From contig CM000151.3 in NCBI GenBank assembly GCA_000004695.1, positions 6,784,001 to 6,848,000 of the forward strand: DNA of 64,000 bases. The letters are read 5' to 3'. The notes beneath the pieces were generated by a model. That model saw nothing but the letters and a program-made list of their open reading frames with translations. It was not told the origin of the DNA and did no database searches. Shown piece by piece: positions 27,291 to 59,354 of the stretch. The position numbers were made by a program, and so were the translations under genes. Each line of letters begins with the position of its first letter. The first letter of the stretch is position 1. This stretch comes from Dictyostelium discoideum. Taxonomy: Eukaryota.

Positions 27291-27792
27291 TTAATAATAA
27301 ACCCGTTCTACCCTTTTTAATTTTCATAATAATTATTATTTTAAAAAAATCCTTTTTAGGACCAAAAAAAAAAGTAAAAAAAGTGGAGAATCTATTTACT
27401 AGTATAAATAATTTCTACAATTTAGTTTTTTATTGTCATCAATGCATCCATATTTAGTAAAATGACTTTGTGACTCTGTGCGGAATTCAAACACATAGGT
27501 ACTAATAAAATGATAGAGAAAGGAAATATTTATGGTTTATGTCAATTTTCCGTATCCAGTGTCATATTATAAATCTATCTATGCACTATGACAAATTTGA
27601 TTGAAAAAAAAAAAAATGTTCTGGACCCAGAAATAAAATTATTATTATTGGTTTATTTAAATTGTGTTATAATGTATCAATTTAAGAATTTTCATTAAAA
27701 ATTTATTTATATTTTAAATTGGTTGATAAAAAAAAAAAAAATTGATTTTCTTACGATCGTGGGGTCGCACTCTAAATTTAATAATAATTAAA

Positions 27793-30683
27793 ATGAATAA
27801 TGAATGTAATGAATATAGTGAAAAATTATTTTGGAAAATTTTTAAAAATAAATATTTATTAAATTGTATATTTAAAAATAAATGTTGTCATAAAAGTAAA
27901 AAATTTAAAACAATTGCATCAATAAATTCAATTTTAAAACATAAACAATATCAACTGTTGGTATGTAAATTAAAAGCAAATGAAAATTTGTATTTTAACA
28001 ATACATACAGAATTATTGAAAAGATTTATGAAATAAAAGATATAGAATTATTCAAAGAGTTAAATTCATTATTACTCACCAAAGGTTATCAAGAAGATGT
28101 TAAAATTTTATTTGATGGCGACTGTGATATAAAATCAGCAGATTTATTCGATCTTCATTTACAATATCACCCAAAAGAATTACAAACCTATATTACAACA
28201 TCTATAGACTCAATCATCCTATATAATAATCCAAAATTGATAATAGTGGTTTTAAAAATTTTAGAACAGTATATCAATGATAGTAAACCATTTACTCTAA
28301 CAGAAATTGAAAGAAATTATTTCATTGGGGAATATTCAGAAATTGGTAAACATAGAGACCAGGAAATTATTGAAGAATGGATTAAAATGATATCGAATAT
28401 TCCAATATCACCAACTTCTATATTAGGTACCAGAGAATATAAAGTAATTCGAGGTGTGGATCTGTGTTGGTATTTAAAATATCAAAAATTACTACCTATG
28501 GTGTATAGTATCAAAACATCATTTGATTCAGAGGAGAATCAACGATTTGGTTTATATAAAAGTATTGAGCAACATGGTGTTAATCTGTCGAATAATAGTT
28601 TAAGTTTAGTTTCAAGTTTTCGTTGAGGCTTTGATAAATGTATTAAAGAGCACATAGAAGATGTCAAAGGAGAATTGGGGTATATCTCTTCATCTATCGA
28701 TTCAGTTTTATTATATTTTGAATTTTATTATTGCAACTATCATGTTAATAGTAAATCAAAAAGTATACCAACATCGATTCAAACTCAAATTGATATAATA
28801 ATTCAAAATAATAAACCATATCAATCAATTAAACAATTGTTTCAACTATTGGTCAATGAAACCAAATCAATTGTTTTATATGCATGTTATTTAAAAGAAT
28901 ATAATGAACCAATTGAAACCATTCAAACCTGCCAAAAAATTCAGTTATTGTTGATGTATTTCATGACAAGAGCTTATAACACCAATGTTTTAATGTTTCT
29001 ATTGAAAAAAGATTTACAAATCAAATTAACTTCGGACTATAGCGAACCATATCTCAACATTTTATTCAGATGTAATCAAATCGATAAAACCAATACTATT
29101 ATATTCTACAATACCTATACATCACAAAAATCAATCATTGCGGAAGATATTGATAAAAAACCACTGGATGATTTAATATCAACAAAGGATCTTGTTGATT
29201 TTGGTAATAAACAATTTCATTCAATTTTAGGTAATGAGTCATCATCGAAATGGAAAGAAATTACATCAAATCTAATTGATCATGATAATATTGTTACAAT
29301 TAAAGATAAAGAAACAATCGATTGGTTATCAGATAGAAACAGGTGGTTGTAGTATTTTAAATATAAGAGATGCTTTACATTCAAAATTAAAACAAATGAA
29401 ACTTGATTTTAGTACATCGGAATTATTAGAATATGCAAGAATCAAATTTAAACAAGTAATTCCAATTTTAGATTCAAATAAAGAGTTGTGTAATATTCAC
29501 ATTTTACGTACTCATGATGATATTGTATCATTAATCAATCGTTTAAACCAATCAAACTTTAATAACAATGAAGATTTATTTAAATATTATATGATTCAAC
29601 TAATTCAATTTGGTTCAAGAAATTCAATTAAATACCTAAGATCAATTTGTGATAATGTTGGTGAAATAGATTTTGTTTTAAAAATCATGGTTGAACATTT
29701 TAATATTGAAGAATACTCCCTAGGAGCAGATATTCAGGATGATTCACCAAGCTATCATCAAAATGATGAATTCAACAAATACAAAATACCAACTCAACAA
29801 ACATGTCAAATAATCAATCTCTCAAAAATTAAAGTCAATGTCGACCACTTTCCAAATACAACTTCTCATTCAAACATTTATCAAACTTTTAAATTTTGAA
29901 GGTGTTCAATTTATTCTAGAAAATTTAAATGGTAAAAATTTAGAATTAAATGAAAAAGCATTTAAAGATCGTTTCCGTAATAGAATATATATCTCCAAAT
30001 ATTCATATAAAGATTTAATTGATTTTATTCAATTTTTAATTGATAAATTCAAAGATTGTCAATTATCATTATCAAATTTATCATTGATATTAAATTACTT
30101 ATTTTTAAAGTTAATTAGAGTCAATAGTTTAACAATTGGTCAAATCAAAAAAGCATATCAATTAATATCACACTATATTGAAATAAATCGTTCAAAACAC
30201 AATTCATACTATTATTTAAAAACATTATCACCAATTATTGGATCATGTATTACCGTTGGTGAAGATCCAACAAATGGTTCTAAAAGAAATGGACCATACT
30301 TTAATTATGATATAGATACATCAGTATATACATTTGAATATATATTTAAAAATAATAATCCAAGAATCAATTTATTTTTTCATTATTTCGAAATGGAATT
30401 AGTAGAAAAAAAAAAGATAAACCAAATCAAAGAACCATTTTTAAATTTTAAACTATTGAAATTAATAATTAAAACATTTGATTTGGAGTCATTTATTAAA
30501 TTTGATAGTTTATTACAACAACATGAATTCAATTTAAAAAGAAAGAACCATAATGTTGTTAATGGTGAGCAAGAGGATGCAAATGATTCAAATTTTTTTA
30601 ATATAAAAGTACAGTTTCGTGTGTTGGTGAGACCCCTTTCAATTTTTTTTGTGTGTGTGATGGTGAGACCCCATGATTCTTGA
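27793..30683 (+). pseudogene. disrupted copy B of the roughly 1,050-aa paralogous family
   Basis: Collinear with intact copy C (31001-34129) at about 85-90% aa identity. It carries an in-frame TGA at 28624-28626 (CGT TGA vs C's TGC TAT). A 2-nt deletion near 29335 (gatagaaac vs gatatagaaac) gives a frameshift. A second frameshift lies near 29870. The 3' end diverges after about 30600, losing the conserved C-terminal roughly 70 aa. The ORF track shows it as four fragments (27742-28626, 28675-29352, 29276-29899, 29838-30683). Confidence 0.75.
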
Positions 30684-30861
30684 ATAACAAAGAAAAAAAA
30701 TTAATTTATTTTATTATTTTTTATTTTTAATTTCTTTTTTTTTTGTTTTTGGTTGGTTTATTAAAAATAAAAATTAATTTTTTAAAAAAAAAATATATAA
30801 TCAAACTCTAAGTTTTTAACAAAAACAACAATCATAATAATAATTAATAGTAATATTAATA

Positions 30862-30956
<95 letters not shown>

Positions 30957-31000
30957 TTAATAATAATAAATAATAATAATAAATAAAATAAATAATTAAA

Positions 31001-34000
31001 ATGAATAATGAATATAATGAATATAGTGAAAAATTATTTTGGAAAGTTTTTAAAAATATATATTTATTAAATTGTATATTTGATAATAAATGTTGTTACA
31101 AAAGTAAAAAATTTAAAACAATCACATCAATAGATTCAATGTTAAAACATAAACAATATCAAATTTTGATATGTAAATTAAAAGCAAATGAAAATTTGAA
31201 TTTTAAGAGTACATATAGAATTATTGAAAAAATTTATGAAATAAAAGATATAGAATTATTCAAAGAGATAAATTCATTATTACTCACCAATGGTTATCAA
31301 GAAGATGTTAAAATTTTATTTGATAGTGACTGGGATATAAAATCAGCAGATTTATTCGATCTTCATTTAAAATATCACCCAAAAGAATTACAAACCTATA
31401 TTACAACATCTATAGACTCAATCATCCTATATAATAATCCAAAATTGATAATAATGGTTTTAAAAATTTTAGAACAGTATATCAATGATAGTAAACCATT
31501 TACTTTAACAGAAATTGAAAGAAGTTATTTCATTGGGGAATATTCAGAAATTGGTAAACATAGAGATCAGGAAATTATTGAAGAATGGATTAAAATGATA
31601 TCGAATATTCCAATATCATCAACATCAATATTAGGTACCAGAGAATATAAAGTAATTAGAGGTATGGATCTGCGTTGGTATTCAAAATATCAAAAATTAC
31701 TACCTATGGGGCATAGTATCAAAACATCATTTGATTCAAAGGAGAATCAACGATTGGATATATTTAAAAATTTTGGGCAACATGGTGTTAATCTCTCCAC
31801 CAAAAGTAAAAGTGCAAGTTTAGTTTCAAATTTTTGCTATGGCTTTGATAAAAGTATTAAAGAGCACATAGAAGATGTCAAAGGAGAATTAGGGTGTATA
31901 TCTACATCTATCGATTCAGTTTTATTGTATTTTGAATTTTATTATTGCAACTATCATGTTAATAGTAAATCAAAAAGTATACCAACATCGATTCAAACTC
32001 AAATTGATATAATAATTCAAAATAATAAACCATATCAAACAATTAAACAATTGTTTCAACTATTGGTTAATGAAACCAAATCAATTGTTTTATATGCCCG
32101 TTATTTAAAAGAATATAATGAACTAATCGAAACCATTGAAACATGCCGTCAAATTCAATTATTGTTAATGTATTTCATGACAAAAACCTATAATACCAAT
32201 GTATTAATGTTTCTATTGAAAAAAGATTTACATATCAAATTAACTTCGAACTATTGCGAACCATATCTTGATATTTTATTCGGATGTAATCAAATCGATA
32301 AAACCAATATTATTATATTCTACAACACCTATAAATCACAAAAATCAATCATTGCGGAAGATATTGATAAAAAACCACTGGATGATTTAATATCAACAAA
32401 GGATCTTGTTGATTTTGGTAATAAACAATTGCATTCAATTTTAGGTAATGAATCATCATCGAAATGGAAAGAAATTGCATCAAATCTAATTGATAATGAT
32501 AAGATTGTTACAATTAAAGATAAAGAAACAATCGATTGGTTATCAGATATAGAAACAGGTGGTTGTAGTATTTTAAATATAAGAGATACTTTACATTCAA
32601 AATTAAAACAAATGAAACTTGATTTTAGTACATCGGAATTATTAGAATATGCAAGAATCAAATTTAAACAAGTAATTCCAATTTTAGATTCAAATAAAAA
32701 GTTGCCTAGTATCCACATTTTACGTACTCATGATGATATTGTATCATTAATCAATCGTTTAAATGAATCAAACTTTATTGATAATGAAAATTTATTTAAA
32801 TATTATATGATTCAACTAATTCAATTTGGTTCAAGAAACTCAAATAAATACCAAAGATCAATTTGTGATAACGTTGGCGAGATTGATTTAGTTTTAGAAA
32901 CCATGGTTGAACATTTTAATATTGAAGAATACTCCCAGGGAGCATACATTCAGGTTCACGACGATTTTAACAAATACAAAATACCAACTCAACAAATAAT
33001 CAATCTCTCTAAAATTAAAGTCAATGTCAATCACTTTCCAAATGCAACATCTTATTTACTTCAAACTTTTATCAAACTTTTAAATTTTGATGGTACTAAA
33101 TTTCTTCTTGATAATTCAAATGGTAAAAAATTATTATTTAATGAAAAAGCATTCAAAGATCGTTTTCACAATAGGATCTATATATCCAAATACTCATATA
33201 AAGGTTTAATAGATTTTATTCAATATTTAATTGATAAATTCTTAGAAGGTCCATTATCATTTACAAATTTATTATTGATACTGAATTTCTTATATTTAAA
33301 GTTAATAAGAGTCAATAATTTAACAATTGATCAAATTAAAACAGCATATCAATTAATATCAAACTATATTGAAATAAATCGTTCAAAACTCACATCATAC
33401 TATTATTTAAAAACATTATCACCAATTATTGCATCATGTATTACCGTTTGTGAAGATCCTACAGGTGAATATCCTACAAGTGGTTCTAAAAGAGAACGAC
33501 CATTCTTAAATTATGATATAGATACATCAGTATATACATTTGAATATATATTTTCAAATAGAACCAATGACGATTTGAACAAATTTATCGATTCAACAAT
33601 CATGGATATTGTAAAAGATAGTTATAATGTGGGAATGTTTTCTAAAATGTTAGATAATAATAATCCAAGAATTACTTTATTTTTACATTATCTTGAAATG
33701 GAATTGGAAAAAAGAAAGACAAACCAAATCAAAGAACCATTTTTAAATTATCAAATATTCAAATTAATAATTAAAACATTTGATATAGAATCATTTATTA
33801 AATTTGATAATTTATTACAACAAAATGAATTCCATATAATAAGAGAAAACCATAATGTTGTTAATGGTGAACAAGAGAATGCAAATGATTCAAGAGATGG
33901 TGAACAAAATGATATAAGTGATCATGGTGAACATGAAAATTTAACAATCAAAGAATTATTTTGTAATGGAGAAAAACCATTATTATCATCTAATATGGTT

Positions 34001-34129
34001 GAATGGTTAGGTGAAATTATAATTCACAAAGATTATTCAGATTATAAGGATATTATAAATTACTTATTCAAAAAATATGAACATCAATTGGGGACCACAC
34101 AACTTTTAATTAAAATCTGTACACATTAA
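31001..34129 (+). CDS. intact copy C of the roughly 1,050-aa paralogous family
   Basis: 1042-aa uninterrupted ORF in direct tandem with pseudogene B. An (AAT)n tract lies immediately upstream (30850-30960). Confidence 0.8.
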   Translation: MNNEYNEYSEKLFWKVFKNIYLLNCIFDNKCCYKSKKFKTITSIDSMLKHKQYQILICKLKANENLNFKSTYRIIEKIYEIKDIELFKEINSLLLTNGYQEDVKILFDSDWDIKSADLFDLHLKYHPKELQTYITTSIDSIILYNNPKLIIMVLKILEQYINDSKPFTLTEIERSYFIGEYSEIGKHRDQEIIEEWIKMISNIPISSTSILGTREYKVIRGMDLRWYSKYQKLLPMGHSIKTSFDSKENQRLDIFKNFGQHGVNLSTKSKSASLVSNFCYGFDKSIKEHIEDVKGELGCISTSIDSVLLYFEFYYCNYHVNSKSKSIPTSIQTQIDIIIQNNKPYQTIKQLFQLLVNETKSIVLYARYLKEYNELIETIETCRQIQLLLMYFMTKTYNTNVLMFLLKKDLHIKLTSNYCEPYLDILFGCNQIDKTNIIIFYNTYKSQKSIIAEDIDKKPLDDLISTKDLVDFGNKQLHSILGNESSSKWKEIASNLIDNDKIVTIKDKETIDWLSDIETGGCSILNIRDTLHSKLKQMKLDFSTSELLEYARIKFKQVIPILDSNKKLPSIHILRTHDDIVSLINRLNESNFIDNENLFKYYMIQLIQFGSRNSNKYQRSICDNVGEIDLVLETMVEHFNIEEYSQGAYIQVHDDFNKYKIPTQQIINLSKIKVNVNHFPNATSYLLQTFIKLLNFDGTKFLLDNSNGKKLLFNEKAFKDRFHNRIYISKYSYKGLIDFIQYLIDKFLEGPLSFTNLLLILNFLYLKLIRVNNLTIDQIKTAYQLISNYIEINRSKLTSYYYLKTLSPIIASCITVCEDPTGEYPTSGSKRERPFLNYDIDTSVYTFEYIFSNRTNDDLNKFIDSTIMDIVKDSYNVGMFSKMLDNNNPRITLFLHYLEMELEKRKTNQIKEPFLNYQIFKLIIKTFDIESFIKFDNLLQQNEFHIIRENHNVVNGEQENANDSRDGEQNDISDHGEHENLTIKELFCNGEKPLLSSNMVEWLGEIIIHKDYSDYKDIINYLFKKYEHQLGTTQLLIKICTH

Positions 34130-43916: not shown

Positions 43917-44161
43917 GAAAAAAAAAAAAAATTTTTTTACTAACTTGATTCTTCCAATTCAGATGGATTATACTCAAACTCATGAAACTTCAAATGTAGT
44001 AGCACTAGAATTATCAAATTCAAATATTAATTCTGTAAATAATGAAAGATTCGAATTGTTTAATAAACTTATTTATATCGATTTAAATAACAATTTTGTA
44101 CAGTAAGTTATTATTTTTATTTTATTTTATTTAAAATACAACCTTGAATGATTTATTGATA

Positions 44162-44195
<34 letters not shown>

Positions 44196-45323
44196 TTTAA
44201 AGCATTTTCGTCAATTCCTAATTTACAAGAATTATATTTATCAAATAATAGAATTTGTGATCTAGAATTTAATAATAATAATTTAAAGAGTAATAGTTTA
44301 AAGCCAACCAATGGTTTTGGATTTCAATTTTTAAAGAAATTAGATTTATCAAATAATCAAATAAACTCTTCAAATATGATTCATTTAATGAAACTTCAAA
44401 ATTTAGTTTGTTTGAATTTATCATCGAATGAGATTGTCACACTTCCTGATAATATGTCTTCATTTTCATCACTCGAGACACTTTATCTTGAAAATTGCCA
44501 CCTCTCTTTAAAAAATTCAACTTTATCAAGTTTATCAACAATACCAAAGTATGTATCATTATATATTATTTTTTATAAAAAAAAAAAAAAAAAAAACTTT
44601 TAAAATTTATACTAATATTTTGTATTATAATGTGCATTAATATCAATAAATTAAAAAAGTTTAAGATTATTAAATTTAAATGGAAATCAATGGGATAGAA
44701 TTTTACCAATTGATGGTGTTTTTAAATCATTAAATGAAATATCACTTTGTAATAATTTCATTTCAAATTTATTTAATATCGCAAATTTATATCATACATC
44801 TTATCCATTGTTAACTCGTGTTCAATTATTTGGTAATCCAGTTGTTGATCCAAGAATTTTTCAACCAAATTTGGATTCTTTAATTTCAAGTATACAAGTT
44901 AATAAAACTATTCAATTCATAACTACACAACCTCCATTTTTACTTTATTCAAATATAAATCAAAAACCACAACCACAACTACAACAACAACAACAACAAC
45001 AACCACAACAACAACAACAAACACAACAATCTAAAAGAAAATTACCACCTCATAAATCACAATCTTCACCATCTATCAATAGATCATCACCAATTAAACA
45101 ATTGGAAGATTTATCTTCAGATGCAGCATTATTTTATAATTATCAATCATCTCCATCACAACACCATCATCAACAACAAATACAACAACAACAGCAACAA
45201 TATTATGATTTAAATGATTATCAAAATTACTTTAGTACAAATGAAGGAAATGTTATTATTATTAGTAATAATCCATCTATAAATGAATTAAGTTTAAGTG
45301 ATCTCACAATAAATGATAGTTAA
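42555..45323 (+). CDS. poly-Q/His-rich leucine-rich-repeat protein; join(42555..43847,43963..44102,44195..44548,44660..45323), about 815 aa
   Basis: Exon 1 is low-complexity Q/H/N/T-rich and ends at ATT|GTAAGA. Exons 2-4 (MDYTQTHETSNVVALELSNSNINSVNNERFELFNKLIYIDLNNNFV / ...LQELYLSNNRICDLEF...LKKLDLSNNQINSS...LVCLNLSSNEIVTLPDNMSSFSSLETLYLENCHL / LLNLNGNQWDRILPID...LFGNPVV) are canonical LxxLxLxxNxI LRRs. Donors are CA|GTAAGT and AA|GTATGT. The ORF track shows the pieces 44376-44603 and 44808-45323. Confidence 0.6.
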
Positions 45324-45934
45324 TACAAAAAAAAAAAAAAAAAAAAAGTAAAAAAAAAAAGTAAAAAAAAAAAAAGAAAAAAAAAGTAAAAAAAAAAGAA
45401 AAAAAAAAAGACCAACCAAAAAGAAAAAAAAAAAAAAAACCAATAAGGAAAAAAAAAAAAAAAAAAAAAATTCTCTTTTTTAAATTATTAAATAAAGCTA
45501 AATGTATTAATATAATAATGGTGTAAGAATAATAAAAGAAAAAAAAAAAACTGGAAATTATTTTAACCCGCAATTCAAAAAAAAAAAAAAAAAAAAAAAA
45601 AAAAACAAAAATTGAAAATAAGAAAAAATTAATAAAATTTTTTAACGATTTTTTTTTTTAAAACTACAAATAAGAATAAAAACTAGACTGTTTGGTGATT
45701 GAAATGAATATTTATTTATATTTTTTAGTTTTTTTTATTTATTTTTTTCAAAATTATGAAAAAAAGTGGAAAAATCTATTTCTTGAAGAAATTAAAATTA
45801 GTATTGCGTTGGTGAGTTATCGAATGAACATCGGTGCTTGTGATCGTCAAAATCAACGTATAAAAAAAGAATTTTATTTGGGTCATAATAAAAAATGGTA
45901 TTTAACTGTGTTTTGGTATATCATTTTAAAATCT

Positions 45935-45972
<38 letters not shown>

Positions 45973-45982
45973 CATTTTTTAT

Positions 45983-47106
45983 TTAAAGCTTAATAATAAC
46001 TTTACCAATGTTTTTATTGCTTGTTTCAAATATTTTAATAAATGATGGAATAATTTGATCAAAACCATTATTAATTACATGTTTTTCAATCATTTTACCT
46101 TCTTTTAACCATTTTGATAAATGTTGGAAAGCATCTTTATAATCTTCATCAGAATAATCAAATACTAAGAAACCTTGCATTGTAATTCTTTTTTCAAACA
46201 CTATGTATTGTGCTCTTTGTCCAATATCATCTGTTACTTTTTTATTGTAAACGGATATGGCGCCACAACAAGCAACTCTTGCATGAACATTCAAAAGTAA
46301 GAGAATTGGATCAGATACTTGGGAGAGAGAGAAAAGAAAAAAAAAAAAAAAAAAGTTAGATTTTAGAAATTTTAAATAAATTAATTATTAAAAATTATTA
46401 AAAATATACCTTCACCACCAACATTTTCATAAAAGATATCAATACCATTTGGGCATGCTTTTTTTAAATCTTCAGCATATGTTGGACTATGGTAATTTAA
46501 TCCAGAGTCAAAATGGAAATCATTAATAAGTGATTTTGCCTTTTCATCAGAACCACAAATACCTACAACTCTTAGACCTAGGATTTTACCAATTTGTCCA
46601 ACGGTGGTACCAACTACACCAGCTGCTGCATTAACAACTAATGTTTCACCTTTCTTTGGTTTACCAATTAAAACAGTTCCATAATATGCAGTAACTCCAG
46701 GCATACCACAAATTCCCAAGTAAGCTGATAATGGAGCAATATTTGGATCTGCCATTAAAATCTCTTTTGAAACTTTAACAATTTGAATTTCTTTCCAATC
46801 GAAATATCCGGAAACATGATCACCTTCTTTAAATCTATCACTTGTTGATTTTAAAACTTTACCAATACAACCACTATTAATTGGATCATGTAATTTAAAT
46901 GGATCAACAAATGTTTTCTTACTATTCATACGGGCACGTAAATATGGATCTACACTGACATATTCTAATTTTATCATAATTTGATCTTTTTCCATTTTTT
47001 GATTTTCATCAAATTTACATGTAGTAATTTTAAATTGATTTCGATCTGGCATACCATTATCTCTTTCAAAATATTTGTCTAATGTAATTTGCTTAATTTC
47101 TGTCAT
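45983..47106 (-). CDS. NADP-dependent oxidoreductase of the MDR superfamily (prostaglandin reductase/LTB4 12-hydroxydehydrogenase-like); join(45983..46316,46410..47106)
   Basis: Exon 1 ...GETLVVNAAAGVVGTTVGQIGKILGLRVVGICGSDEK...IDIFYENVGGE carries the nucleotide-binding AxxGxxG motif and ends at G|GTATAT. The acceptor is CTCTCTCCCAAG. Exon 2 is VSDPILLLLNVHARVACCGAISVYN...GKVIIKL. The junction ENVGGE|...ICGAIS.YN is collinear with PTGR1. Confidence 0.8.
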
Positions 47107-47161
47107 TTTAAATTAAATAAAGTATTATTTAAAAAAAAAAAAAAAAATTTTAAATTTGTTT

Positions 47162-47192
<31 letters not shown>

Positions 47193-48639
47193 GTATTACT
47201 ATTTAAAAAATTTTCAATTGCAAGTTCAACACACTCACATAACTTTTTTTATTCATGGCTTGTAGCAAATAATTTTCCACAAAAATAAAAACCCACAAAT
47301 TACTGAAAAATAAATAATTTTATTCTCATCAATTAAATAATTTTTATTTTTTATTTAATAATTTTTTTATTATTTGTCTATTTTTTTTTTTTTTTTATTA
47401 TTTTTATTTTTATTTTTGTTGAAACTATTAATTTTCAAATTTGATATTATAATTTTATTAATTTTTGTTCTATTATTAGGTTATATATTATTTTAATGAT
47501 ATTTTTGTAAAATTATTTGAAAATAATGTGGTGGTATTCAATAAATAAAAAAAAAAAAAAAAAATCCAAAGATTAAGATTTTGTTTGATTATTTTTTTAA
47601 AATAGCTATGTCTTAAGATCTTAATTTGATGTTAAGAAATATCACTTCGATTTTAAAGAAGGTATTTTATTATTATTTTAATAAAAAGAAATCAAATTAT
47701 TACAAAAAAAAAAAAACAATACCGGAATGTAAAATATTGTTAGGTTGCGTCATATTGGAATTTAATAAAATAACATAATTTTTGGAATATTTTTGTGGTG
47801 TTTTTTTATGTACTCACAGTTAAGTTTTTTATTTTTTATTGGGTGTGTGTGTGTGTTTTTATTTAAATTTTTATTTTGATTTTTTTTTATTTTTTTTTTT
47901 TATTTTTATTTTTATTTTTAAATGAACTAAATTGTTCGATTAGGTTAAAAAGAAATTATTGGTGTTGATTAATTTTTATCTTCAATTTTTTGAGAGAGTT
48001 TAAATAAAAAATAAAAAAAAAAAAAAATTATTGTGTGGGGCAACATATGAGTTTTTTTTGTTGTGGTCTTATTCGTTTAATTAAAAGAAGTTATTTTTGA
48101 AATTTAAAATAAAGAAACAATTATTTAAACATTATTATGAGCTTTCTGTTCCATAAAAGTAATAAAATCTGTTAAGTATTAAATTTTTTATTTTTTTTAT
48201 TTTTTATTTTTTTAATTTTTTTTTTTAAATTAATTGGAAAAAAAAAAAAATATAAAATAGGGACTTTTTTTTTAAAAAAAGCCTTTTGGATTGTCATTTA
48301 TAAACAAATGTATTTTACATATTAAAATATTATTTTAATTTTTTTTTTTATTTTTTTAATTTATTTTTATTTTTATTTATTTTTTTCTTTTTTTTTTTCT
48401 TTTTTTTTTTAAAAAACTATAAATTAATTTTTTAAATTATTTTTTTTAATTTTTGTTAGTTAAAAAAACATTTAATTAAATAAAAATCATTACAACTGTA
48501 TTAATAATAAATAAATAAATAAATAAACTTTTTTTTTATATAAATTAGTAAATAAAAAAAAAATTTATGACTTTAAACAAAATAAATAAAATTATTTTTA
48601 ATTATAATAAAAATAAAAACAATTCAAATTAGCGAAAAA

Positions 48640-50218
48640 ATGATAAAAGTAAGTTTATAATTATAATTATTTTTTTTAATTGTTTTTTTTTTTTTTATTT
48701 TTTTTTTATTCTTATAATTTTTTTTTAATTTATTTAAAAATAATATTTATTAATTAATTATTTTAAAAGGGATCAAGTATGGTTTTAAAAGAGCTCTCAA
48801 GTGGAGCTTTAAGAAGAGGATCAAAGGAATTTATTTCAAATGTACAAAGAAGAAATTCAATTTGTGGACCATGTATTGGACTCGATTCAAAGCAATCACT
48901 AACTTCAACATCTAAAATGTTTTCGGATGATTCAATTGGTTCAATTTTAGAAAATTCGACAAATATTCAAGATTTTCAAGATAGTTTTCAAAAACCTCAA
49001 CCATTTCCAGTAAGAAATAATTCAATTTCTGGAATTATAAATTCAATAAAGAATGAAAAAATAAAAAATTTAAATCCATTAACTTTTCAAAATAATGGAA
49101 TTGTAAATAATGGAATGTACGATATGAATAGAAGATTCTCAATTGACCCTCTTTCAATGAGTAATTATTATTATTATTATTATTATTATTTATTTCTTAA
49201 TTCTATTATTTTCATTTCTCCATTATTTGTTAATTAATTCCAAAAATTTCTTTCTTTCCTTTATTTCTTTTTATTTTTTTTAAAAGGTTCAAAAAGAGAG
49301 ACTAATAATAATAATAATTTATTTCCAAATGGAAATTTAGGAAAATTTAAATCTTTTAATCTTGGTAAGTAATTTTTTTTTTATTTTTTTTATTTTTTTT
49401 TTATTTTTTTTTTTTTTTAAAAAATTAATAATAATTAATTTTTTTTTTAAATAAATATATCAATAGATGAAAGTTTTATTGAATTAGAAGCAGAATCAAC
49501 ATTTAATAATGTTTGGGGTGAATTAGTAACAAAATATGGATTAGAGAATTTAGAATTCCCAAAAGAGATAACATTTTTAGCAGGAGCACCTGGATCAGGT
49601 AAAGGTACGAATACAGAAGTTTTAATGAATGCATTAGGAGTTAATGAAGAACCAATTGTGATGAGCTCATTATTGAATTCACCAGAATGTATTGAAATAA
49701 AGAAACAAGGTGGATTGGTTAATGATAAAGTTGTATTAGAACTTTTATTGAAAAAATTAAGTAAACCCGATTATTTATGTGAAAATCAAGGTCCAAAGAA
49801 AGGTGTTATCATCGATGGTTTCCCACGTTCTGCCAAACAAGTTAAATTTGTAGAATTACTCTTTGATAAACTAGTTAAAATTAGAAAAACAATTAATCCA
49901 AACGCTTCTTTACCACGTTTTAGAATTAGTGTTTTACATGTAAGTGAAGAAGAATCTGTAAAGAGACAATTATCTCGTGGAGAATATGCACTTAAAGAGA
50001 ATCAAATTAGAAGAGATAAAAACTTACCACTTTTAGAGATTAGAGATACCGATATCGACCCAAATGCCTCTAAAAAACGTTATACCTTGTATCAAGAACA
50101 ATTCAATCATTTAAAATCTTTAGAAGATAAATTCGATTTTGATTTAATTGATGCAAATGGTACTTTAAAAGATGTACAAAATACAATTAAAACCTCTTAT
50201 GCTAAATTACAACCACAC

Positions 50219-50224
<6 letters not shown>
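48640..50224 (+). CDS. adenylate-kinase-family (NMP kinase) protein with an N-terminal extension of about 160 aa; join(48640..48648,48770..49160,49277..49354,49467..50224), about 410 aa
   Basis: Possible micro-exon ATGATAAAA|GTAAGT. Exon 2 is (GSS)MVLKELSSGALRRGSKEF... Exon 3 is a short Asn-rich segment. Exon 4 carries the NMP-kinase P-loop FLAGAPGSGKGT, GLVNDKVV, the IIDGFPR motif and a LID-like region. Donors are ATG A|GTAATT and CTT G|GTAAGT. Acceptors are TTTAAAAG and ATCAATAG. Confidence 0.65.
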
Positions 50225-50249
<25 letters not shown>

Positions 50250-50383: not shown

Positions 50384-53300
50384 CTAACCAAATTTTTGAT
50401 TTAAAAGTTTTAATTTATAGTAAATTACATATGGTTCCAATTGGTGTTTATATTTATCAAATAAGTGATTTATAATATCTTGATAATCTGAATAATCTTT
50501 GTATATAATTGTACCAAACCATTCAACCATATTAGTTGATAATGGTTTGCCATATTCATCCAATTGTTTGGTTATTGAATTTACATGTTCACCATCATCA
50601 TTTGCATCCTCTTGTTCACCATTAACAACATTATGATTCTCTCTTTTTAAATGGATTTCATATTGTTGTAATAAATTATCTAATTTAATAAATGATTCTA
50701 AATCAAATGTTTTAATTATTAGCTTCAATAGTTGATAATCTAAAAATGGTTCTTTGACTTCATTTGTCTTTCTAAATTTTAATTCAATTTCGAAATAATG
50801 TAAAAATAAATTAATTCTTGGATTATTATTATATAACATTTTGGGAAATATTTCCATATTAAAATCATTTTTTGTAATTTCCATGACTGTTGAATCGATA
50901 AATTGGTTTAAATCGTTATTATTTCTCTTTGTAAATATGTTTTCGAATGTATATACTGATATATCTATATGATAATATAATAATGGTCTTTTAAAACCAG
51001 TTAAAGGATCTACACTAACGGTAATACATGATGCAATAATTGGTGATAGTGTTTTTAAATAATAGTATGAATTATGTTTTGAACTAGCTATTTTAATATA
51101 GTTTGATATTAATTGATAAGCTGTTTTGATTTGATCAATTGTTAAATTATTGACTCTAATTAACTTTAAAAATAAGTAATTCAATATCAATGATAAATTT
51201 GATAATGATAATTGACCATCTTTGAATTTATCGATTAAAAATTGAATCATTTCAATTAAATCTTTATATAAATATTTGCATGTATAGATTCTATCTTGAA
51301 AACGATCTTTAAATGCTTCTTCTAATTCTAAATCTTTACCATTTAAATTATCAAGAATAAACTGAACACCTTCAAAATTTAAAAGTTCTACAAATATATG
51401 AAATAAATAAGAAGTTACATTTGGAAAGTGATTGAAATTGACTTTAATTTTAGTGAGATTGATTATTTGGCATGTTTGTTGAGTTGGTATTTTGAATTCT
51501 TTGAATTTTTCATTTTCATGATAACTTTCTGAATGGTCCCAAACCTCTCCTTCGTCGGTGTATGAATTAGTATAAAACCTTTTAACCACAAAATTGAAAA
51601 GTTTTATTACAAAATCACCCCAATCATCATAATCTGAATAAAACTCATCAATAGAATCACAAATTAATCTTAGGTATTTAATTGAATTTCTTGAACCAAA
51701 TTGAATTATTTGAATCATATAATATTTAAATAAATCTTCACTGTTATTAAAGTTTGATTGGTTTAAACCGTTTATTAGTGATACAATATCATCATGAGTA
51801 CGTAAAATGTGAATATTACACAACTCTTTATTTGAATCTAAAATTGGAATTACTTGCTTAAATTTGATTCTTGCATATTCTAATAATTCTGATGTACTAA
51901 AATCAAGTTTCATTTGTTTTAATTTTGAATGTAAAGCATTTCTTATATTTAAAATACTACAACCACCACCTGTTTCTATATCTGATAACCAATCGATTGT
52001 TTCTTTATCTTTAATTGTAACAATCATATCATTATCAATTAGATTTGATGTAATTTCTTTCCATTTCGATGATGATTTACTACATAAAATGGAATTCAAC
52101 TGTTTATCACCTAAAGCTATATCCTCCTGCTCCTTTGTCGGTATTATATTATTTAATAGCTTTTCATCAATATTTTCTATAATGATTGATTTTTGTGATA
52201 TATAGATTTTGTTGAATTTATTAATATTGTTTTTATTAATTTGATTATCTTTGAATAAAATATTGAGAAATGATCTACTAATACTGGCTAAATCTGATTT
52301 TGTTAAAATAATTTTTATATGTTTTTTCAATAGAAACTTTAATATATTGGTGTTATAGGTTTTTGTCATGAAATAGAGTAATACTACCATCATTTCTTCG
52401 TCAGGTTCAATATTATCAATTGGTTCATTATATTCTTTTAAATAACATGCATATAAAACAATTGATTCAGTTTCATTGATTAATAGTTGAAATAGTTGTT
52501 TAATTGATTGATATAGCGTACAACGTCTATGTTTATTATTTTGAATTATTATATCAATTTGAGTTTGAATAGATGTCGGTATACTTTTTTTTGATTTACC
52601 TCCATAATAATAGTTGCAGTAATACAATTTAAAATATAATAAAACTGAATTAATTGATGTAGAGATATACTCTAATTCTCCTTTAACATCTTTTATGTGC
52701 TCATTAATACATTTATCAAATCCATAACAAAAACTTGAAACCATATCTTTATGACGAGCTGACTCTCTAATTTTTTCAAATCTTGGTAGTAATGGTTTGT
52801 GTGGTATTTTAACATTATGACCTAAATTTTCTGCTGGATAATAAAATGACGTTCGAATATTATTATAACCTAATGATAGTAATTTTTGAAATTTCAAATA
52901 CCAACGTACATTCACATTTATACCTGTTCTTGAAAATGTCTGAAGATCATATAGATCTCTAAATATTGATGTTGGTGATATTGGAATATTCAATATTATT
53001 TTAATCTTTTCTTTAATTTCTTCATGATTGTCAAGATCTTCAAAGCCATTACATGAAATACAGTCCATAATGAAATAATTTCTTTCGATTTTTGTTAAAG
53101 TGAATGGTTTATTATCATTGAGGTATTGTTCATAATAATCTAAAACTCTCATTAACAATTTTGGGTGATTAAGTCGAAAGATTGATTTTATCATTGATGG
53201 AATATAGGTTTGTAATTCTTCTGGATGATATTTTAAATGAATATCAAATAAATCTACTGATTTTATACCCCAAATCTTATCGAATAAAATTTTAACATCA

Positions 53301-53590
53301 CCTCTGTAACCTTTAAAAAGTAATAATGAATATATCTCTTTGAATACTTCTATATCTTTTATTTCATTGATTTTAGCATTTCCATATGAACTCTTAAAAT
53401 TTAAAATTTCATCTGCTTTTAATTTACATATCAAAAGTTGATATTGTTTATGTTTTAACATTGAATATATTGATGTAATAGTTTTAAATTTTTTACTTTT
53501 ATGACAACATTTATTTTTTAATATATAATTTAATAAATATTTATTTTTAAAAACTTTCCAAAATAATCTTTCATTATATTCATTATTCAT
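50384..53590 (-). CDS. intact copy D of the roughly 1,050-aa paralogous family
   Basis: 1068-aa uninterrupted ORF. It is about 92% identical to copy E outside two hypervariable patches. Confidence 0.8.
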   Translation of the reverse strand: MNNEYNERLFWKVFKNKYLLNYILKNKCCHKSKKFKTITSIYSMLKHKQYQLLICKLKADEILNFKSSYGNAKINEIKDIEVFKEIYSLLLFKGYRGDVKILFDKIWGIKSVDLFDIHLKYHPEELQTYIPSMIKSIFRLNHPKLLMRVLDYYEQYLNDNKPFTLTKIERNYFIMDCISCNGFEDLDNHEEIKEKIKIILNIPISPTSIFRDLYDLQTFSRTGINVNVRWYLKFQKLLSLGYNNIRTSFYYPAENLGHNVKIPHKPLLPRFEKIRESARHKDMVSSFCYGFDKCINEHIKDVKGELEYISTSINSVLLYFKLYYCNYYYGGKSKKSIPTSIQTQIDIIIQNNKHRRCTLYQSIKQLFQLLINETESIVLYACYLKEYNEPIDNIEPDEEMMVVLLYFMTKTYNTNILKFLLKKHIKIILTKSDLASISRSFLNILFKDNQINKNNINKFNKIYISQKSIIIENIDEKLLNNIIPTKEQEDIALGDKQLNSILCSKSSSKWKEITSNLIDNDMIVTIKDKETIDWLSDIETGGGCSILNIRNALHSKLKQMKLDFSTSELLEYARIKFKQVIPILDSNKELCNIHILRTHDDIVSLINGLNQSNFNNSEDLFKYYMIQIIQFGSRNSIKYLRLICDSIDEFYSDYDDWGDFVIKLFNFVVKRFYTNSYTDEGEVWDHSESYHENEKFKEFKIPTQQTCQIINLTKIKVNFNHFPNVTSYLFHIFVELLNFEGVQFILDNLNGKDLELEEAFKDRFQDRIYTCKYLYKDLIEMIQFLIDKFKDGQLSLSNLSLILNYLFLKLIRVNNLTIDQIKTAYQLISNYIKIASSKHNSYYYLKTLSPIIASCITVSVDPLTGFKRPLLYYHIDISVYTFENIFTKRNNNDLNQFIDSTVMEITKNDFNMEIFPKMLYNNNPRINLFLHYFEIELKFRKTNEVKEPFLDYQLLKLIIKTFDLESFIKLDNLLQQYEIHLKRENHNVVNGEQEDANDDGEHVNSITKQLDEYGKPLSTNMVEWFGTIIYKDYSDYQDIINHLFDKYKHQLEPYVIYYKLKLLNQKFG

Positions 53591-54715: not shown

Positions 54716-55122
54716 AAAGAATAAATAAATAAATAAAAAACAAATAAAACTAGTTTTAATAAATCTAAAACTTTGTAAATGTGTTTTGAAAAAAAAAAAA
54801 AAAATTTTGGTTTAAAATTCAAAAAAAGAATTATCTTCTCTAAAAACGAAACCCTTTTCAAATGATAATTGTTGAACACCACTACTACAATCACTACCAT
54901 GAATCTATTAATTTTATTTTATTTTATTTTTTAAACAAATCAATTTTTAAATTATAAATTAAAAAAAAAAAAAAAAAGATTTTAAATAATTAAATTAGAT
55001 ATTTTATTATTATAATTTTTATTTATTTTTTTATTTTAATTTAATGTTTAATTATTTTTTTTTATACTTTATTATTTTTAGAAAGTTAATTTCAAATAAT
55101 ACAGATTTAATTTGTATAGGTT

Positions 55123-58100
55123 TTAACTAATAGTCTTAACCAGATTTTGATTTAAAAGTTTTAATTTATAGTAATATATATATGGTTCTAATTGGTGTTT
55201 ATATTTATTAAATAAGTGATTTATAATATCTTGATAATCTGAATAATCTTTGTATATAATTGTACCAAACCATTCAACCATATTAGTTGATAATGGTTTG
55301 CCATATTCATCCAATTGTTTGGTTATTGAATTTACATGTTCACCATCATCATTTGCATCCTCTTGTTCACCATTAACAACATTATGAATATCTCTTCTCA
55401 AATAGATTTCATATTTTTGTAATAAATTATCTAATTTAATAAATGATTCTAAATCAAATGTTTTAATTATTAGCTTCAATAGTTTATAATCTAAAAATGG
55501 TTTTTTGATTTCATTTGTTTTTCTTTTTTCTAATTCCATTTCGAAATAATGTAAAAATAAATTAATTCTTGGATTATTATTATTATTATATAACATTTTG
55601 GAAAATATTTCCATATTAAAACCATCTTTTACAATATCTATGATTGTTGAATCGATAAATTGGTTTAAATCGTTATTATTTCTATTTTTAAATATATTTT
55701 TGAATGTATACACTGATGCATCTATATTATAACCACAGAATGGTGTTCCTTTTTTAAAACCATTTGCAGGATCTTTAATAATTGTAATACATGATTCAAT
55801 AATTGGTGATAATGTTTTTAAATAATAGTATGATGTGTGTTTTGAACTATCTATTTTAATATAGTTTGATATTAATTGATGAGCTGTTTTGATTTGATCA
55901 ATTGTTAAATTATTGACTCTAATTAACTTTAAAAATAAGTAATTCAATATCAATGATAAATTTGATAATGATAATTGACCATCTTTGAATTTATCGATTA
56001 AAAATTGAATCATTTCAATTAAATCTTTATATAAATATTTGCATGTATAGATTCTATCATGAAAACCATCTTGAAATGGTTCTGTATTTAATTCTAAATG
56101 TTTACCATTTAAATTATCAAGAATAAATTGAACACCTTCAAAATTTAAAAGTTTGATAAATGTTTGAAATAAATTAGAGGTTTCATATTGAAAGAGATTA
56201 ACTTTAACTTTAATTTTAGTAAGATTGATTATTTGACATGTTTGTTGAGTTGGTATTTTGTATTTGTTGAATTCTTCATTTTGATAATAACCAAGTGAAT
56301 CCTCTGAAACATCTGCATTATAGGAGTATGAGTTTGTAAAAAACTTAATAACCTTATAATCGAAAATACTAACTACTAAACCACCCAAACCATCATAACC
56401 TGAATAAAATTCGTCAGTGGAATCACAAATTAATCTTAGATATTTAATTGAATTTCTTGAACCAAATTGAATTAGTTGAATCATATAATATTTAAATAAA
56501 TTTTCATTATCATTAAAGTTTGATTGGTTTAAACGATTGATTAATGATACAATATCATCATGAGTACGTAAAATGTGAATATTACACAACTCTTTATTTG
56601 AATCTAAAATTGGAATTACTTGCTTAAATTTGATTCTTGCATATTCTAATAATTCTGATGTACTAAAATCAAGTTTCATTTGTTTTAATTTTGAATGTAA
56701 AGCATTTCTTATATTTAAAATACTACAACCACCACCTGTTTCTATATCTGATAACCAATCGATTGTTTCTTTATCTTTAATTGTAACAATCTTATCATTA
56801 TCAATTAGATTTGATGTAATTTCTTTCCATTTCGATGATGATTTACTACATAAAATGGAATTCAACTGTTTATCACCTAAAGCTATATCCTCCTGCTCCT
56901 TTTTCGATTTTATATTATTTAATAGCCTTTCATCAATATTTTCTATAATGATTGATTTTTGTGATATGTAGATTTTGTTGAATTTATTAATATTGTTTTT
57001 ATTAATTTGATTATCTTTGAATAAAATATTGAGAAATGATCTACTAATACTGGCTAATTCTGATTTTTTTAAATTGATTTTTATATGTTTTTTCAATAGA
57101 AACTTTAATATATTGGTGTTATAGGTTTTTGTCATGAAATAGAGTAATACTATTATCATTTCTTCATCAGGTTCAATATTATCAATTGGTTCATTATATT
57201 CTTTTAAATAACATGCATATAAAACAATTGATTCAGTTTCATTGATTAATAGTTGAAATAATTGTTTAATTGATTGATATAGCGTACAACGTCTATGTTT
57301 ATTATTTTGAATTATTATATCAATTTGAGTTTGAATAGATGTTGGTATACTTTTTGATTTACCTCCATAATAATAGTTGCAATAATATAATTTAAAATAT
57401 AATAAAACTGAATTAATTGATGTAGAGATATACTCTAATTCTCCTTTAACATCTTCTATGTGCTCCTTAATACATTTATCAAATCCATAACAAAAACTTG
57501 AAACCATATCTTTATGACGAACTGACTCTCTAATTTTTTCAAATTTTGGTAGTAATGGTTTGTGTGGTATTTTAATATTGTGACCTAAATTTTCTGCTGG
57601 ATAATAAAATGACGTTCGAATATTATTAAAACCTAATGATAGTAATTTTTGAAATTTCAAATACCAACGTACATTCACATTTGTATCTGTTCTTGAAAAT
57701 ATCTCAAGATCACATAGATCTCTAAATATTGATGTTGTTGAAATTGGAATATTCAATATTATTTTAATCTTTTCTTTAATTTCTTCATGATTGTCAAGAT
57801 CTTCAAAGCCATTACATGAAATACAGTCCATAATGAAATAATTTCTTTCGATTTTTGTTAAAGTGAATGGTTTATTATCATTGAGGTATTGTTCATAATA
57901 ATCTAAAACTCTCATTAACAATTTTGGGTGATTAAGTCGAAAGATTGATTTTATCATTGATGGAATATAGGTTTGTAATTCTTCTGGATGATATTTTAAA
58001 TGAATATCAAATAAATCTACTGATTTTATGCCCCAGATAGTATCAAATAAATTTTTAACATCTCGATAACCTTTAAAAAGTAATAATGAATATATCTCTT

Positions 58101-58353
58101 TGAATACTTCTATATCTTTTATTTGATTCATGATTTTATCATTTTCATATGCACTCTTTAAGTACAAATTTTCATTTACTTTTAATTTATATATCAACAG
58201 TTGATATTGTTTATGTTTTAACATTGAACCTATTGATGTAATAGTTTTAAATTTTTTACTTTTATGACAACATTTATTTTTTAATATATTATTTAATAAA
58301 TATAAATTTTTAAAAACTTTCCAAAATAATCTTTCATTGTATTCATTATTCAT
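55123..58353 (-). CDS. intact copy E of the roughly 1,050-aa paralogous family
   Basis: 1076-aa uninterrupted ORF in direct tandem with D (1.5-kb spacer) and followed by truncated copy F. Confidence 0.8.
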   Translation of the reverse strand: MNNEYNERLFWKVFKNLYLLNNILKNKCCHKSKKFKTITSIGSMLKHKQYQLLIYKLKVNENLYLKSAYENDKIMNQIKDIEVFKEIYSLLLFKGYRDVKNLFDTIWGIKSVDLFDIHLKYHPEELQTYIPSMIKSIFRLNHPKLLMRVLDYYEQYLNDNKPFTLTKIERNYFIMDCISCNGFEDLDNHEEIKEKIKIILNIPISTTSIFRDLCDLEIFSRTDTNVNVRWYLKFQKLLSLGFNNIRTSFYYPAENLGHNIKIPHKPLLPKFEKIRESVRHKDMVSSFCYGFDKCIKEHIEDVKGELEYISTSINSVLLYFKLYYCNYYYGGKSKSIPTSIQTQIDIIIQNNKHRRCTLYQSIKQLFQLLINETESIVLYACYLKEYNEPIDNIEPDEEMIIVLLYFMTKTYNTNILKFLLKKHIKINLKKSELASISRSFLNILFKDNQINKNNINKFNKIYISQKSIIIENIDERLLNNIKSKKEQEDIALGDKQLNSILCSKSSSKWKEITSNLIDNDKIVTIKDKETIDWLSDIETGGGCSILNIRNALHSKLKQMKLDFSTSELLEYARIKFKQVIPILDSNKELCNIHILRTHDDIVSLINRLNQSNFNDNENLFKYYMIQLIQFGSRNSIKYLRLICDSTDEFYSGYDGLGGLVVSIFDYKVIKFFTNSYSYNADVSEDSLGYYQNEEFNKYKIPTQQTCQIINLTKIKVKVNLFQYETSNLFQTFIKLLNFEGVQFILDNLNGKHLELNTEPFQDGFHDRIYTCKYLYKDLIEMIQFLIDKFKDGQLSLSNLSLILNYLFLKLIRVNNLTIDQIKTAHQLISNYIKIDSSKHTSYYYLKTLSPIIESCITIIKDPANGFKKGTPFCGYNIDASVYTFKNIFKNRNNNDLNQFIDSTIIDIVKDGFNMEIFSKMLYNNNNNPRINLFLHYFEMELEKRKTNEIKKPFLDYKLLKLIIKTFDLESFIKLDNLLQKYEIYLRRDIHNVVNGEQEDANDDGEHVNSITKQLDEYGKPLSTNMVEWFGTIIYKDYSDYQDIINHLFNKYKHQLEPYIYYYKLKLLNQNLVKTIS

Positions 58354-58489
58354 TATAATTAATTTTTTTTACTTATTATTGTTTGTTGTTTGTGGGTTTT
58401 TTGAAAAAAAAAAAAAAAAAAAAAAAAAAAGATAAAAAAACGAAAAAAATGTTGCCTGTGCGATTTTAATTGTTCCTTTATTTAAACCA

Positions 58490-58572
58490 TTATAAAAAAG
58501 TTAATTTATTAAAAATAAATAAATAAATAAATAATATCTCAAATCTACTCTCCCTTAGGTGCTGAAAAATAG

Positions 58573-58610
<38 letters not shown>

Positions 58611-59354
58611 AAGAAAGAGAAATTATATGTAATCACTGTTGTGTATTCTTTAGTGCAATAAAATGATGTTTGAGTATCATTAAATTCAAAAGGTATTAAT
58701 TTTTGATATTGTAGATACCAAAGTACATCCACACTTGTATCTACACTTGGAACTATTTTTTCTGAATCTTCAAATATTGAGGTTGACGATATTGGAATAT
58801 TCGATATTATTTTCATCCTTTCTTTAATTTCTTCAATATCGCATCGATATCCTTTTAAAGTTAAATATTTCATAATGAAATAATTTCTTTCATTTTTACT
58901 ATGGTTTATTATGATTGGTGGACTCTTTAAAAAATTTTAAAACCTTTATTATTAATTTTGGATGATTATATAGGATGATTGAATCTATATATCCTGTATT
59001 AATATGGGTTTGTAATTTTTCTGGATGATATTTTAAATGAAAATCAAATAAATCTACCGATTTTGTACCCCAAATCCTATCGAATAAAATAGGATGATAA
59101 CTATCATCTTGATAACCTTTAAAAAGTAATAATGAATATATCTCTTTGAATACTTCTATATCTTTTATTTCATTAATGATTTTATTATTTCTATATGCAC
59201 CCTTAAAATTTATCAACAGTTGATATTGTTTATGTTTTAACATTGAATCTATTGGTGTGATGTTTTTAAATTTTTTACTTTTATGACAACATTTATTTTA
59301 TAATGTATAAATTTAATAAATATTTATTTTTAAAAACTTTCCAAAATAATGATT
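58490..59354 (-). pseudogene. truncated/degraded N-terminal remnant (copy F) of the paralogous family
   Basis: Fragments 58899-59243 (MLKHKQYQLLI...DIEVFKEIYSLLLFKGYQDD...HPKLIIKVLKFF...NKP) and 58490-58873 (...ISNIPISSTSIF...VDVLWYLQYQKLIPFEF...) are collinear with residues about 40-260 of copies D/E. The start codon region is decayed (ataatgaatataatgaatcat). There are frameshifts between the fragments. Nothing corresponds to the C-terminal 800 aa. Confidence 0.7.

Follow-up and report, generated by a model that had tools for sequence, protein, structure and literature searches.

Six loci within a single stretch of Dictyostelium discoideum chromosome 2 (64,000 nucleotides, AX4 lineage, in the following the window; with a GC content of 0.13-0.33 this DNA is very AT-rich) carry genes, or remnants of genes, for related proteins of about 1,050 amino acids, in which strongly conserved blocks alternate with short segments that differ between the copies. 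A preliminary description of this DNA took the pattern for that of a diversifying recognition, self/non-self or conflict-related family, and the locus thus raises the question whether the variable segments are products of selection for diversity or whether another process leaves the same picture. Our data favour the latter: the genes probably form a Dictyostelium-restricted multigene family in which the look of a conserved frame comes mainly from gene conversion between copies and the variable patches are loops that escape it, the proteins being putative helical scaffolds or adaptors.

When the whole window was searched with copy D by tblastn, exactly six family loci were found within 54 kb, comprising four intact open reading frames (ORFs), one pseudogene and one relic:

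5174-8248, plus strand: copy A, intact ORF of 1,024 amino acids, exact match to DDB_G0276401 / XP_643084.
27793-30683, plus strand: copy B, pseudogene with an ATG at 27793 and homology up to 30653.
31001-34129, plus strand: copy C, intact ORF of 1,042 amino acids, exact match to DDB_G0276403 / XP_643095.
50384-53590, minus strand: copy D, intact ORF of 1,068 amino acids, exact match to DDB_G0276409 / XP_643101.
55123-58353, minus strand: copy E, intact ORF of 1,076 amino acids, with no exact protein record.
58646-59375, minus strand: copy F, frameshifted N-terminal relic of about 250 residues, with nucleotide homology up to 59375.

The ORFs and the tblastn search agree on six related loci with A, C, D and E intact and B a pseudogene, as first described. 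A chance origin of ORFs of 1,000 codons is ruled out because stop codons have a random frequency of 0.092 per codon in this window: random ORFs average 11 codons, and one of 1,000 codons would be expected with P ~1e-42. Copy A is indeed the most diverged copy in the window (50-58% amino acid identity to C, D and E).

Three modules are conserved in every protein: the N-terminal one spans about 55 amino acids, the central block about 105 and the C-terminal helical domain about 270, and the loops between them tolerate indels; alignments of family members show that the conserved blocks quoted in the preliminary description are real. The positions of the first two modules are:

53408-53569, minus strand: N-terminal module of D (residues 8-61), conservation 0.8-0.94; in the other copies at 58171-58332 (E), 31031-31192 (C) and 5195-5356 (A).
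51755-52069, minus strand: central block of D (residues 508-612), homogenised among the copies at the nucleotide level; in the other copies at 56521-56835 (E), 32459-32770 (C) and 6530-6841 (A).

Among 24 members, the most conserved part of the family is the central block and not the N-terminus alone.

Gene conversion between the paralogues is recurrent, because mosaic tracts, runs of concerted sites, an excess of differences that match a paralogue and a low synonymous divergence of the central block are all found. For strain comparisons, AX4 was set against the syntenic loci of the wild strains ACTFIR (L001; copies prefixed R_) and ACTFIW (L003; copies prefixed W_), both of which have clear orthologues of D and E. 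Copies D and E of AX4 are 91.9% identical over 3,488 nucleotides; the identity of roughly 92% given earlier holds at this level, but not for the amino acids, of which 86-87% are identical. Sliding identity shows that the pair is a mosaic: the segments coding for residues 125-200, 490-570, 766-800 and 986-1015 are 99-100% identical in nucleotide sequence between the two AX4 paralogues, and in these tracts the identity of D to E exceeds that of either copy to its own orthologue (95-97%). One example is the following tract:

52991-53218, minus strand: D/E conversion tract (D residues 125-200), 100% nucleotide identity between D and E, against 95-99% for D/R_D and E/R_E.

There are 135 parsimony-informative sites among D, E, R_D and R_E, of which 99 support orthology, 31 are concerted (D and E against R_D and R_E) and 5 support the third grouping; the concerted sites are clustered in runs, one of them with nine consecutive sites over residues 106-213. 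Polarised differences between orthologues match the paralogue of the same genome in 33-63% of cases, against 6-12% expected by chance (p <= 1e-12). In nucleotide sequence C, D, E and R_X are 97-100% identical over the central block, whereas elsewhere these copies share 78-92%. The block's proportion of synonymous differences (pS) is 0.05-0.09, compared with 0.23 gene-wide; homogenisation extends even to C, which lies 17 kb away on the opposite strand. In several family proteins (DDB_G0276559, P0005, P0006 and P0019), a full copy is joined to one or two additional C-terminal halves, and since such halves begin at the central block (in P0002, P0005, P0006 and P0019), the fusions point to unequal recombination at this position. 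Together these data suggest that the central block is a hotspot of recombination or conversion. An embedded non-coding RNA was considered as a reason for its conservation at the nucleotide level, but the block has no Rfam match and contains no tRNA.

Two short segments had been singled out as differing almost completely between D and E:

51491-51658, minus strand: patch 1 of D (residues 645-700), paralogue-specific, indel-prone loop; in the other copies at 56257-56424 (E), 32867-32980 (C) and 6938-7090 (A).
50966-51028, minus strand: patch 2 of D (residues 855-875), short paralogue-specific loop in the C-terminal helical domain; in the other copies at 55723-55791 (E), 33437-33520 (C) and 7562-7609 (A).

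Both patches can be aligned between D and E, with amino acid identities of 45% (patch 1, in a gap-free alignment) and 48% (patch 2), and the claim of an almost complete difference was thus too strong. Nor are they the only variable segments: in the 24 full-length members the least conserved stretches are residues 181-190, 211-280, 651-690, 981-1010 and the C-terminal tail, and all of these outside patch 1 are at least as variable as the two patches. The patches are genuinely coding; introns and alignment artefacts were considered as alternatives and rejected, as the frame is open, the GC content is 0.25-0.35, patch 1 of D and E aligns free of gaps and the orthologues are constrained.

The patches are stable between orthologues and are not hypervariable in the allelic sense. 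In patch 1, the D orthologues of different strains share 93-95% of their amino acids, and nucleotide identity is 72-75% for D/E, 97-98% for D/R_D and 93-95% for E/R_E; patch 2 of E is 100% identical in amino acids to its orthologue from a cryptic species, P0008. Stability is seen across orthologues of three strains and a cryptic species, and among the 24 members each paralogue lineage has its own stable patch type. Diversifying selection would be expected to show in locally raised ratios of non-synonymous to synonymous substitution rates (dN/dS). In patch 1, pS and the proportion of non-synonymous differences (pN) rise together: pS and pN are 0.30 and 0.26 for D/E, 0.07 and 0.02 for D/R_D and 0.12 and 0.05 for a second pair of orthologues, and a direct test for dN/dS above 1 is negative (pN/pS of about 0.9, p = 0.75). 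Since pS rises as much as pN, patch 1 is older sequence that escaped gene conversion. The patches are paralogue-specific, conversion-resistant loops, neither introns nor artefacts.

The same loops could be read as the specificity determinants of intracellular sensors or adaptors, in a family in which, for example, pathogens, symbionts or social cheaters select for a diverse repertoire and oppose homogenisation of the loops. The patches differ between all paralogue lineages and are conserved within each, as specificity regions would be. Against this stand their position in gappy stretches of low model confidence (predicted local distance difference test scores, pLDDT, of 24-37 for patch 1 and below 50 for patch 2), their tolerance of indels and the intact paralogue W_Y, which lacks 37 residues of patch 1 and thus most of it. 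We consider such a recognition or conflict family unlikely.

Rates of evolution were estimated by Nei-Gojobori counting. Between paralogues the dN/dS is 0.6-0.8; between orthologues, compared over more than 3 kb, it is 0.30-0.39: the D orthologues of ACTFIR and ACTFIW have 94.6-94.8% nucleotide identity and a dN/dS of 0.35, and the E orthologues of the same strains have a dN/dS of 0.31-0.37. Copy X, which is present in the wild strains only, reaches 0.86 between ACTFIR and ACTFIW. In the same genomes, D has 96 non-synonymous and 59 synonymous codon differences, compared with 4:6 for the neighbouring adenylate kinase gene (ADK) and 4:15 for the alcohol dehydrogenase-like gene (ADH). The family is therefore constrained, with purifying selection weaker than on its neighbours and a protein evolution that is several-fold faster, in agreement with the first reading of the locus and as a recognition family would have it. 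Pooled sliding windows over six paralogue pairs have a dN/dS of 0.26-0.5 in the conserved modules and of about 1 in the variable regions, and in no window is a dN/dS above 1 significant with the counting method.

Family genes of ACTFIR and ACTFIW differ by 2.3-3.7%, against 0.8% for the flanking DNA (3-5 times as much), which could also be taken for diversification; much of this excess, however, is explained by conversion from diverged paralogues. In a separate observation, the coding sequences of ADK and ADH (window positions 43950-50244) differ by 1.7-2.9% between the AX4-type haplotype and ACTFIR/ACTFIW, with the two wild strains differing from each other by about 0.8%. A preprint on the tgr genes quotes, for comparison, an average divergence of about 0.3% for its closest strains. 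Isolates classed as D. discoideum are thus considerably diverged here.

Copy number changes by birth and death, as had been proposed. Copy B, which shares 90.5% of its nucleotides with C, is disrupted by a TGA in frame (28624-28626), by frameshifts of -2 and -5 and by the loss of 99 bp; its 3' end is degraded, and its homology is spread over three frames. Copy F matches residues 9-254 of D in tblastn, also split across three frames; it is a truncated remnant, as first described, but its homology lies at 58646-59375 and not at 58490-59354. The sequence of strain ACTFIT is the same as that of the window. In ACTFIR and ACTFIW, the D orthologue is separated from ADK by one additional intact copy, and more copies lie upstream; AX4 has none of these:

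L001 13628-16708: extra copy of a wild strain (X, Y), intact.
L003 13776-16892: extra copy of a wild strain (X, Y), intact.
L003 1201-4278: extra copy of a wild strain (X, Y), intact.

The E orthologue of ACTFIW (L003 4982-8257) has an in-frame stop at codon 313, which is either a real nonsense polymorphism or an error of the nanopore assembly. The gene model of copy E itself looks unsettled: the exact product of its ORF was not found in a collection of 15 billion proteins, and assembly GCA_054883475.1, in which the DNA is identical, has a spliced gene model of 1,101 amino acids here.

The amplification proposed earlier as tandem is found in the local arrays, but not as one tandem block: the copies form two short opposed arrays (B-C on the plus strand, F-E-D on the minus strand) plus the solitary copy A, and ordinary genes are interspersed between them, for an LRR protein, a villin-like protein, a metallo-beta-lactamase-fold protein, a G-alpha subunit, a P4-ATPase, ADH and ADK. 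Two of the other genes in the window are these:

331-3558, plus strand: long ORF for an LRR (FBXL-type) protein with long poly-Thr and poly-Asn tracts, unrelated to the family.
16298-17839, minus strand: G-protein alpha-subunit gene in at least two exons (ORFs 16298-16795 and 17366-17839).

Copy-number variation and pseudogenes would suit a recognition family. They would also be expected if the family were dispensable and decaying under relaxed constraint, or if it were cargo of an unrecognised mobile element: pseudogenes, fragments and fusions are frequent, presence and absence vary between strains, the expression of DDB_G0276401 is low, and the dN/dS of 0.6-0.8 between paralogues and of 0.86 for copy X is high. 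Nevertheless, we regard this explanation as improbable. The low dN/dS of the orthologues over more than 3 kb and the upkeep of ORFs of 1,000 codons speak against decay; D and E are syntenic in three lineages, with an E orthologue in a cryptic species, and conservation of the N- and C-terminal modules reaches to D. purpureum. As for a mobile element, a Pfam search of the family proteins identified no transposase, reverse transcriptase or integrase domain; homology between D and E extends beyond the coding sequence by only about 85 bp upstream and about 165 bp downstream, terminal repeats are absent, and both genes keep their position across strains.

Outside D. discoideum and its cryptic relatives the family is hard to recognise. 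A word-index search returned 31 matches, all from D. discoideum or cf. discoideum, and when 1.84 billion representative proteins were searched with a profile built from 24 members, 21 sequences only were found, all but two of them from the same source. The two exceptions are 'partial' models from D. purpureum that match the N-terminal module only. No homologue was found outside Dictyostelium among these 1.84 billion proteins, which include viral and metagenomic ones, and this also argues against a selfish element. The same word-index search with the N-terminal 175 amino acids returned fragments only, and with a D. purpureum ORF it returned two paralogues.

In D. purpureum, the 76-residue 'partial' model DICPUDRAFT_23830 is the start of an ORF of 1,153 codons (GL870942), with a second gene for about 1,100 amino acids beside it. 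These two distant members lie head-to-head:

L002 (GL870942) 1798-5157, minus strand: distant D. purpureum member.
L002 (GL870942) 5896-9357, plus strand: distant D. purpureum member.

Further members are DICPUDRAFT_83255 and DICPUDRAFT_100004, and the D. purpureum annotation under-calls the family. The N-terminal module is the only part that is clearly recognisable in this species (hhalign probability 97.9%, E 5.6e-13; 36-44% identity). The C-terminal domain follows with a probability of 84% (E 7e-6) and the colinear motif NYLF..LI...YQ.I...S..YYL, and there is a weak central match at IIKDKETID...ELLEYA; all three matches are colinear. Overall identity to the D. discoideum proteins is about 23%, the middle region can barely be aligned, and the motifs GGCS and HILRTHDD are absent. 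As judged from these alignments, the family is older than D. discoideum and has diverged to about 23% identity. The description as lineage-specific thus fits what is readily recognised, but not the distant D. purpureum homologues. Elsewhere on chromosome 2, AX4 encodes a protein of 102 amino acids (P0047; DDB_G0273369 / DDB_G0273683) that contains nothing but the N-terminal module; this module resembles that of D. purpureum and has an insertion, and the protein may be what is left of a second subfamily.

The products of A, C, D and E (1,024-1,076 amino acids) are soluble and, in predicted models, all-alpha. The view that they have no recognisable domain, transmembrane segment or repeat was borne out. 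Pfam identifies no family in the full-length proteins even at E = 0.01, and nothing above noise in isolated N-termini or in the D. purpureum homologues; no match to a housekeeping domain emerged, and sequence searches of the PDB returned no relative. The maximum 19-residue hydropathy is 1.3-1.6, compared with 2.6 in the neighbouring P4-ATPase, indicating no transmembrane segment, and there is no signal peptide. Comparison of segments against each other with hhalign detected no internal sequence repeat, and no tandem 33-residue ankyrin repeats match the Ank profile. Family identifiers (DDB_G) are found in no searchable main text of the literature, and two preprints with Dictyostelium long-read genomes (bioRxiv 10.1101/2025.10.22.684067 and 10.1101/2025.08.01.668227) do not mention the family. 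Absent from both Pfam and the searched literature, the family is undescribed, as had been supposed.

The AlphaFold2 model of the full-length protein is all-helical, with a pLDDT of 57, a predicted template modelling score (pTM) of 0.37 and large parts below a pLDDT of 50; the model of the C-terminal half has a pLDDT of 61 and a pTM of 0.54, with residues 715-985 at 75-92. The best structural matches of these low-confidence models, the helices of which have 8-16 residues, are alpha-solenoid proteins (Z below 8). A protein-binding, non-enzymatic role as scaffold or adaptor is what we infer from these predictions. A catalytic role of the Cys and His residues in the GGCS...HILRTHDD motifs was considered and dropped, since the D. 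purpureum proteins do not share these motifs, and this speaks against a catalytic site in the central block.

Plant and nematode F-box receptor families show birth-and-death behaviour, and the motif LFWKVFKNKYLLN is presumably similar to N-terminal sequences of FNIP-repeat and ankyrin-like proteins of Dictyostelium. Both would suit a degenerate adaptor superfamily, with a Skp1-binding, F-box-like N-terminal module and a degenerate ankyrin or HEAT body, expanded as SCF substrate receptors. However, isolated N-termini have no match to PF00646, PF12937 or related F-box, F-box-like or Ank families at E <= 10, and hhalign probabilities of the N-terminal profile are <=0.1% against both an ankyrin consensus and a non-curated F-box alignment (0.07% for the latter). 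No internal repeats are detectable either. We therefore rejected an F-box or ankyrin identity of the N-terminal module, and we hold a superfamily of this kind to be very improbable.

At least two members are transcribed. In published RNA-seq data on D. discoideum exposed to bacteria (PMC7078664 Tables S1/S2), DDB_G0276401 (copy A) has a low average expression (2.2 log2 units) and is down on Bacillus subtilis (log fold change -2.24, adjusted P 8e-10), and another family member, DDB_G0271218, is up on the same bacterium (log fold change +4.15, adjusted P 3e-6; PMC7078664 Table S2, sheet Bs_vs_control). A second RNA-seq supplement has no family entry. A response of two members to bacteria would be welcome to a recognition family, but the changes are in opposite directions and not coherent across members.

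The family is shaped by the duplication and loss of copies at the locus, by unequal recombination, by the decay of copies to pseudogenes and by frequent conversion between paralogues. Conversion keeps most of the coding sequence, and above all the central block, near-identical between neighbouring copies, and the few loops that escape it retain old, paralogue-specific sequence and so appear as hypervariable patches. As for the proteins, we propose that they are non-enzymatic helical-solenoid scaffolds or adaptors, the conserved modules of which would bind one shared partner; whether or not the specificity of binding is tuned, the loops that differ between paralogues would be the candidates for it.

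Several points weigh against this explanation. Conversion in the outgroup copy can mislead the polarisation of differences, and constraint on synonymous sites, instead of conversion, may account for part of the near-identity of the central block in nucleotide sequence. The counting method ignores AT bias and recombination; a few short pooled windows have a dN/dS of 1.3-1.7, on small counts, and patch 2 has 14 non-synonymous differences and only one synonymous difference between D and E, and there may thus be some positive selection. Within patch 1, the pN/pS of orthologues is about 0.3-0.4 (small counts), indicating that the loop is not wholly free to change, which fits a role in specificity as well as drift. 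Finally, the scaffold or adaptor role is derived from an all-alpha composition and weak solenoid matches of models with a mean pLDDT of 57 and 61.

Some of these points would favour diversifying recognition, but the excess in patch 2 is not significant when tested directly for dN/dS above 1 (p = 0.12), as with patch 1 and all windows, and the patches are stable in orthologues. Pfam searches of the family proteins identified no sensor-type domain (NTPase, TIR or LRR). A tgr-like role in self/non-self recognition at the cell surface is excluded, because the proteins have neither signal peptide nor transmembrane segments. The preliminary interpretation is upheld in part, for the undescribed family, its turnover and its rapid evolution, but not for diversifying selection on the patches; the proteins may still have an intracellular role in conflict. 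A more specific version, an intracellular repertoire resembling innate immunity that addresses a common effector through the N-terminal and central modules, and in which loops (patches 1 and 2 and residues 205-290) each recognise a target of their own, for example bacterial or symbiont factors, and their diversity is selected against conversion, on a fold with no known relatives, is speculative and in our view rather unlikely.

In either case, the locus documents a protein family found only in Dictyostelium that evolves far faster than its neighbours. If conversion explains the pattern, it is a clean case in which gene conversion and conversion-resistant loops mimic hypervariable patches, and a caution for scans that use the sequence only. 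Were the loops true, selected determinants of specificity, a model phagocyte would have in this family a candidate repertoire for intracellular recognition, and the family would bear on the evolution of cell-autonomous immunity or social conflict; such systems are poorly known in amoebae.

How does the family compare with known systems? Comparable in genomic behaviour are families that evolve by birth and death and in concert: local paralogues with dead copies, copy-number differences and conversion tracts are all present here. The tgr genes encode transmembrane proteins with extracellular TIG/IPT domains and extreme allelic polymorphism, and tgrB2 is mosaic (bioRxiv 10.1101/2025.10.22.684067, 10.1101/2025.08.01.668227). 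Local arrays, pseudogenes and fragments, gain and loss between strains and mosaic genes with divergent segments in homogeneous sequence are shared with them; in contrast, the proteins studied here are soluble and all-alpha with no known domain, and their divergent segments are stable between orthologues. Systems of the major histocompatibility complex (MHC), tgrB1/C1 or NLR-LRR type have significant dN/dS above 1 and allelic hypervariability, and we found neither. With the F-box and adaptor expansions of plants and nematodes the family shares a short conserved N-terminal module with a faster body, tandem clusters, many pseudogenes and raised dN/dS, but it has no F-box signature, and its conservation peaks in the central block and not only at the N-terminus. 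The alpha-solenoids (ankyrin, HEAT/ARM, TPR/PPR/HPR) are similar in the predicted all-helical structure, the short helices and as best structural matches, and differ in that the family has no repeat at the sequence level and no Pfam repeat family, with models of low pLDDT. The D. purpureum proteins, at about 23% identity, with a barely alignable middle and without GGCS and HILRTHDD, still agree in their length (1,097-1,180 amino acids), the N-terminal module, the colinear C-terminal motif and the clustering of their genes.

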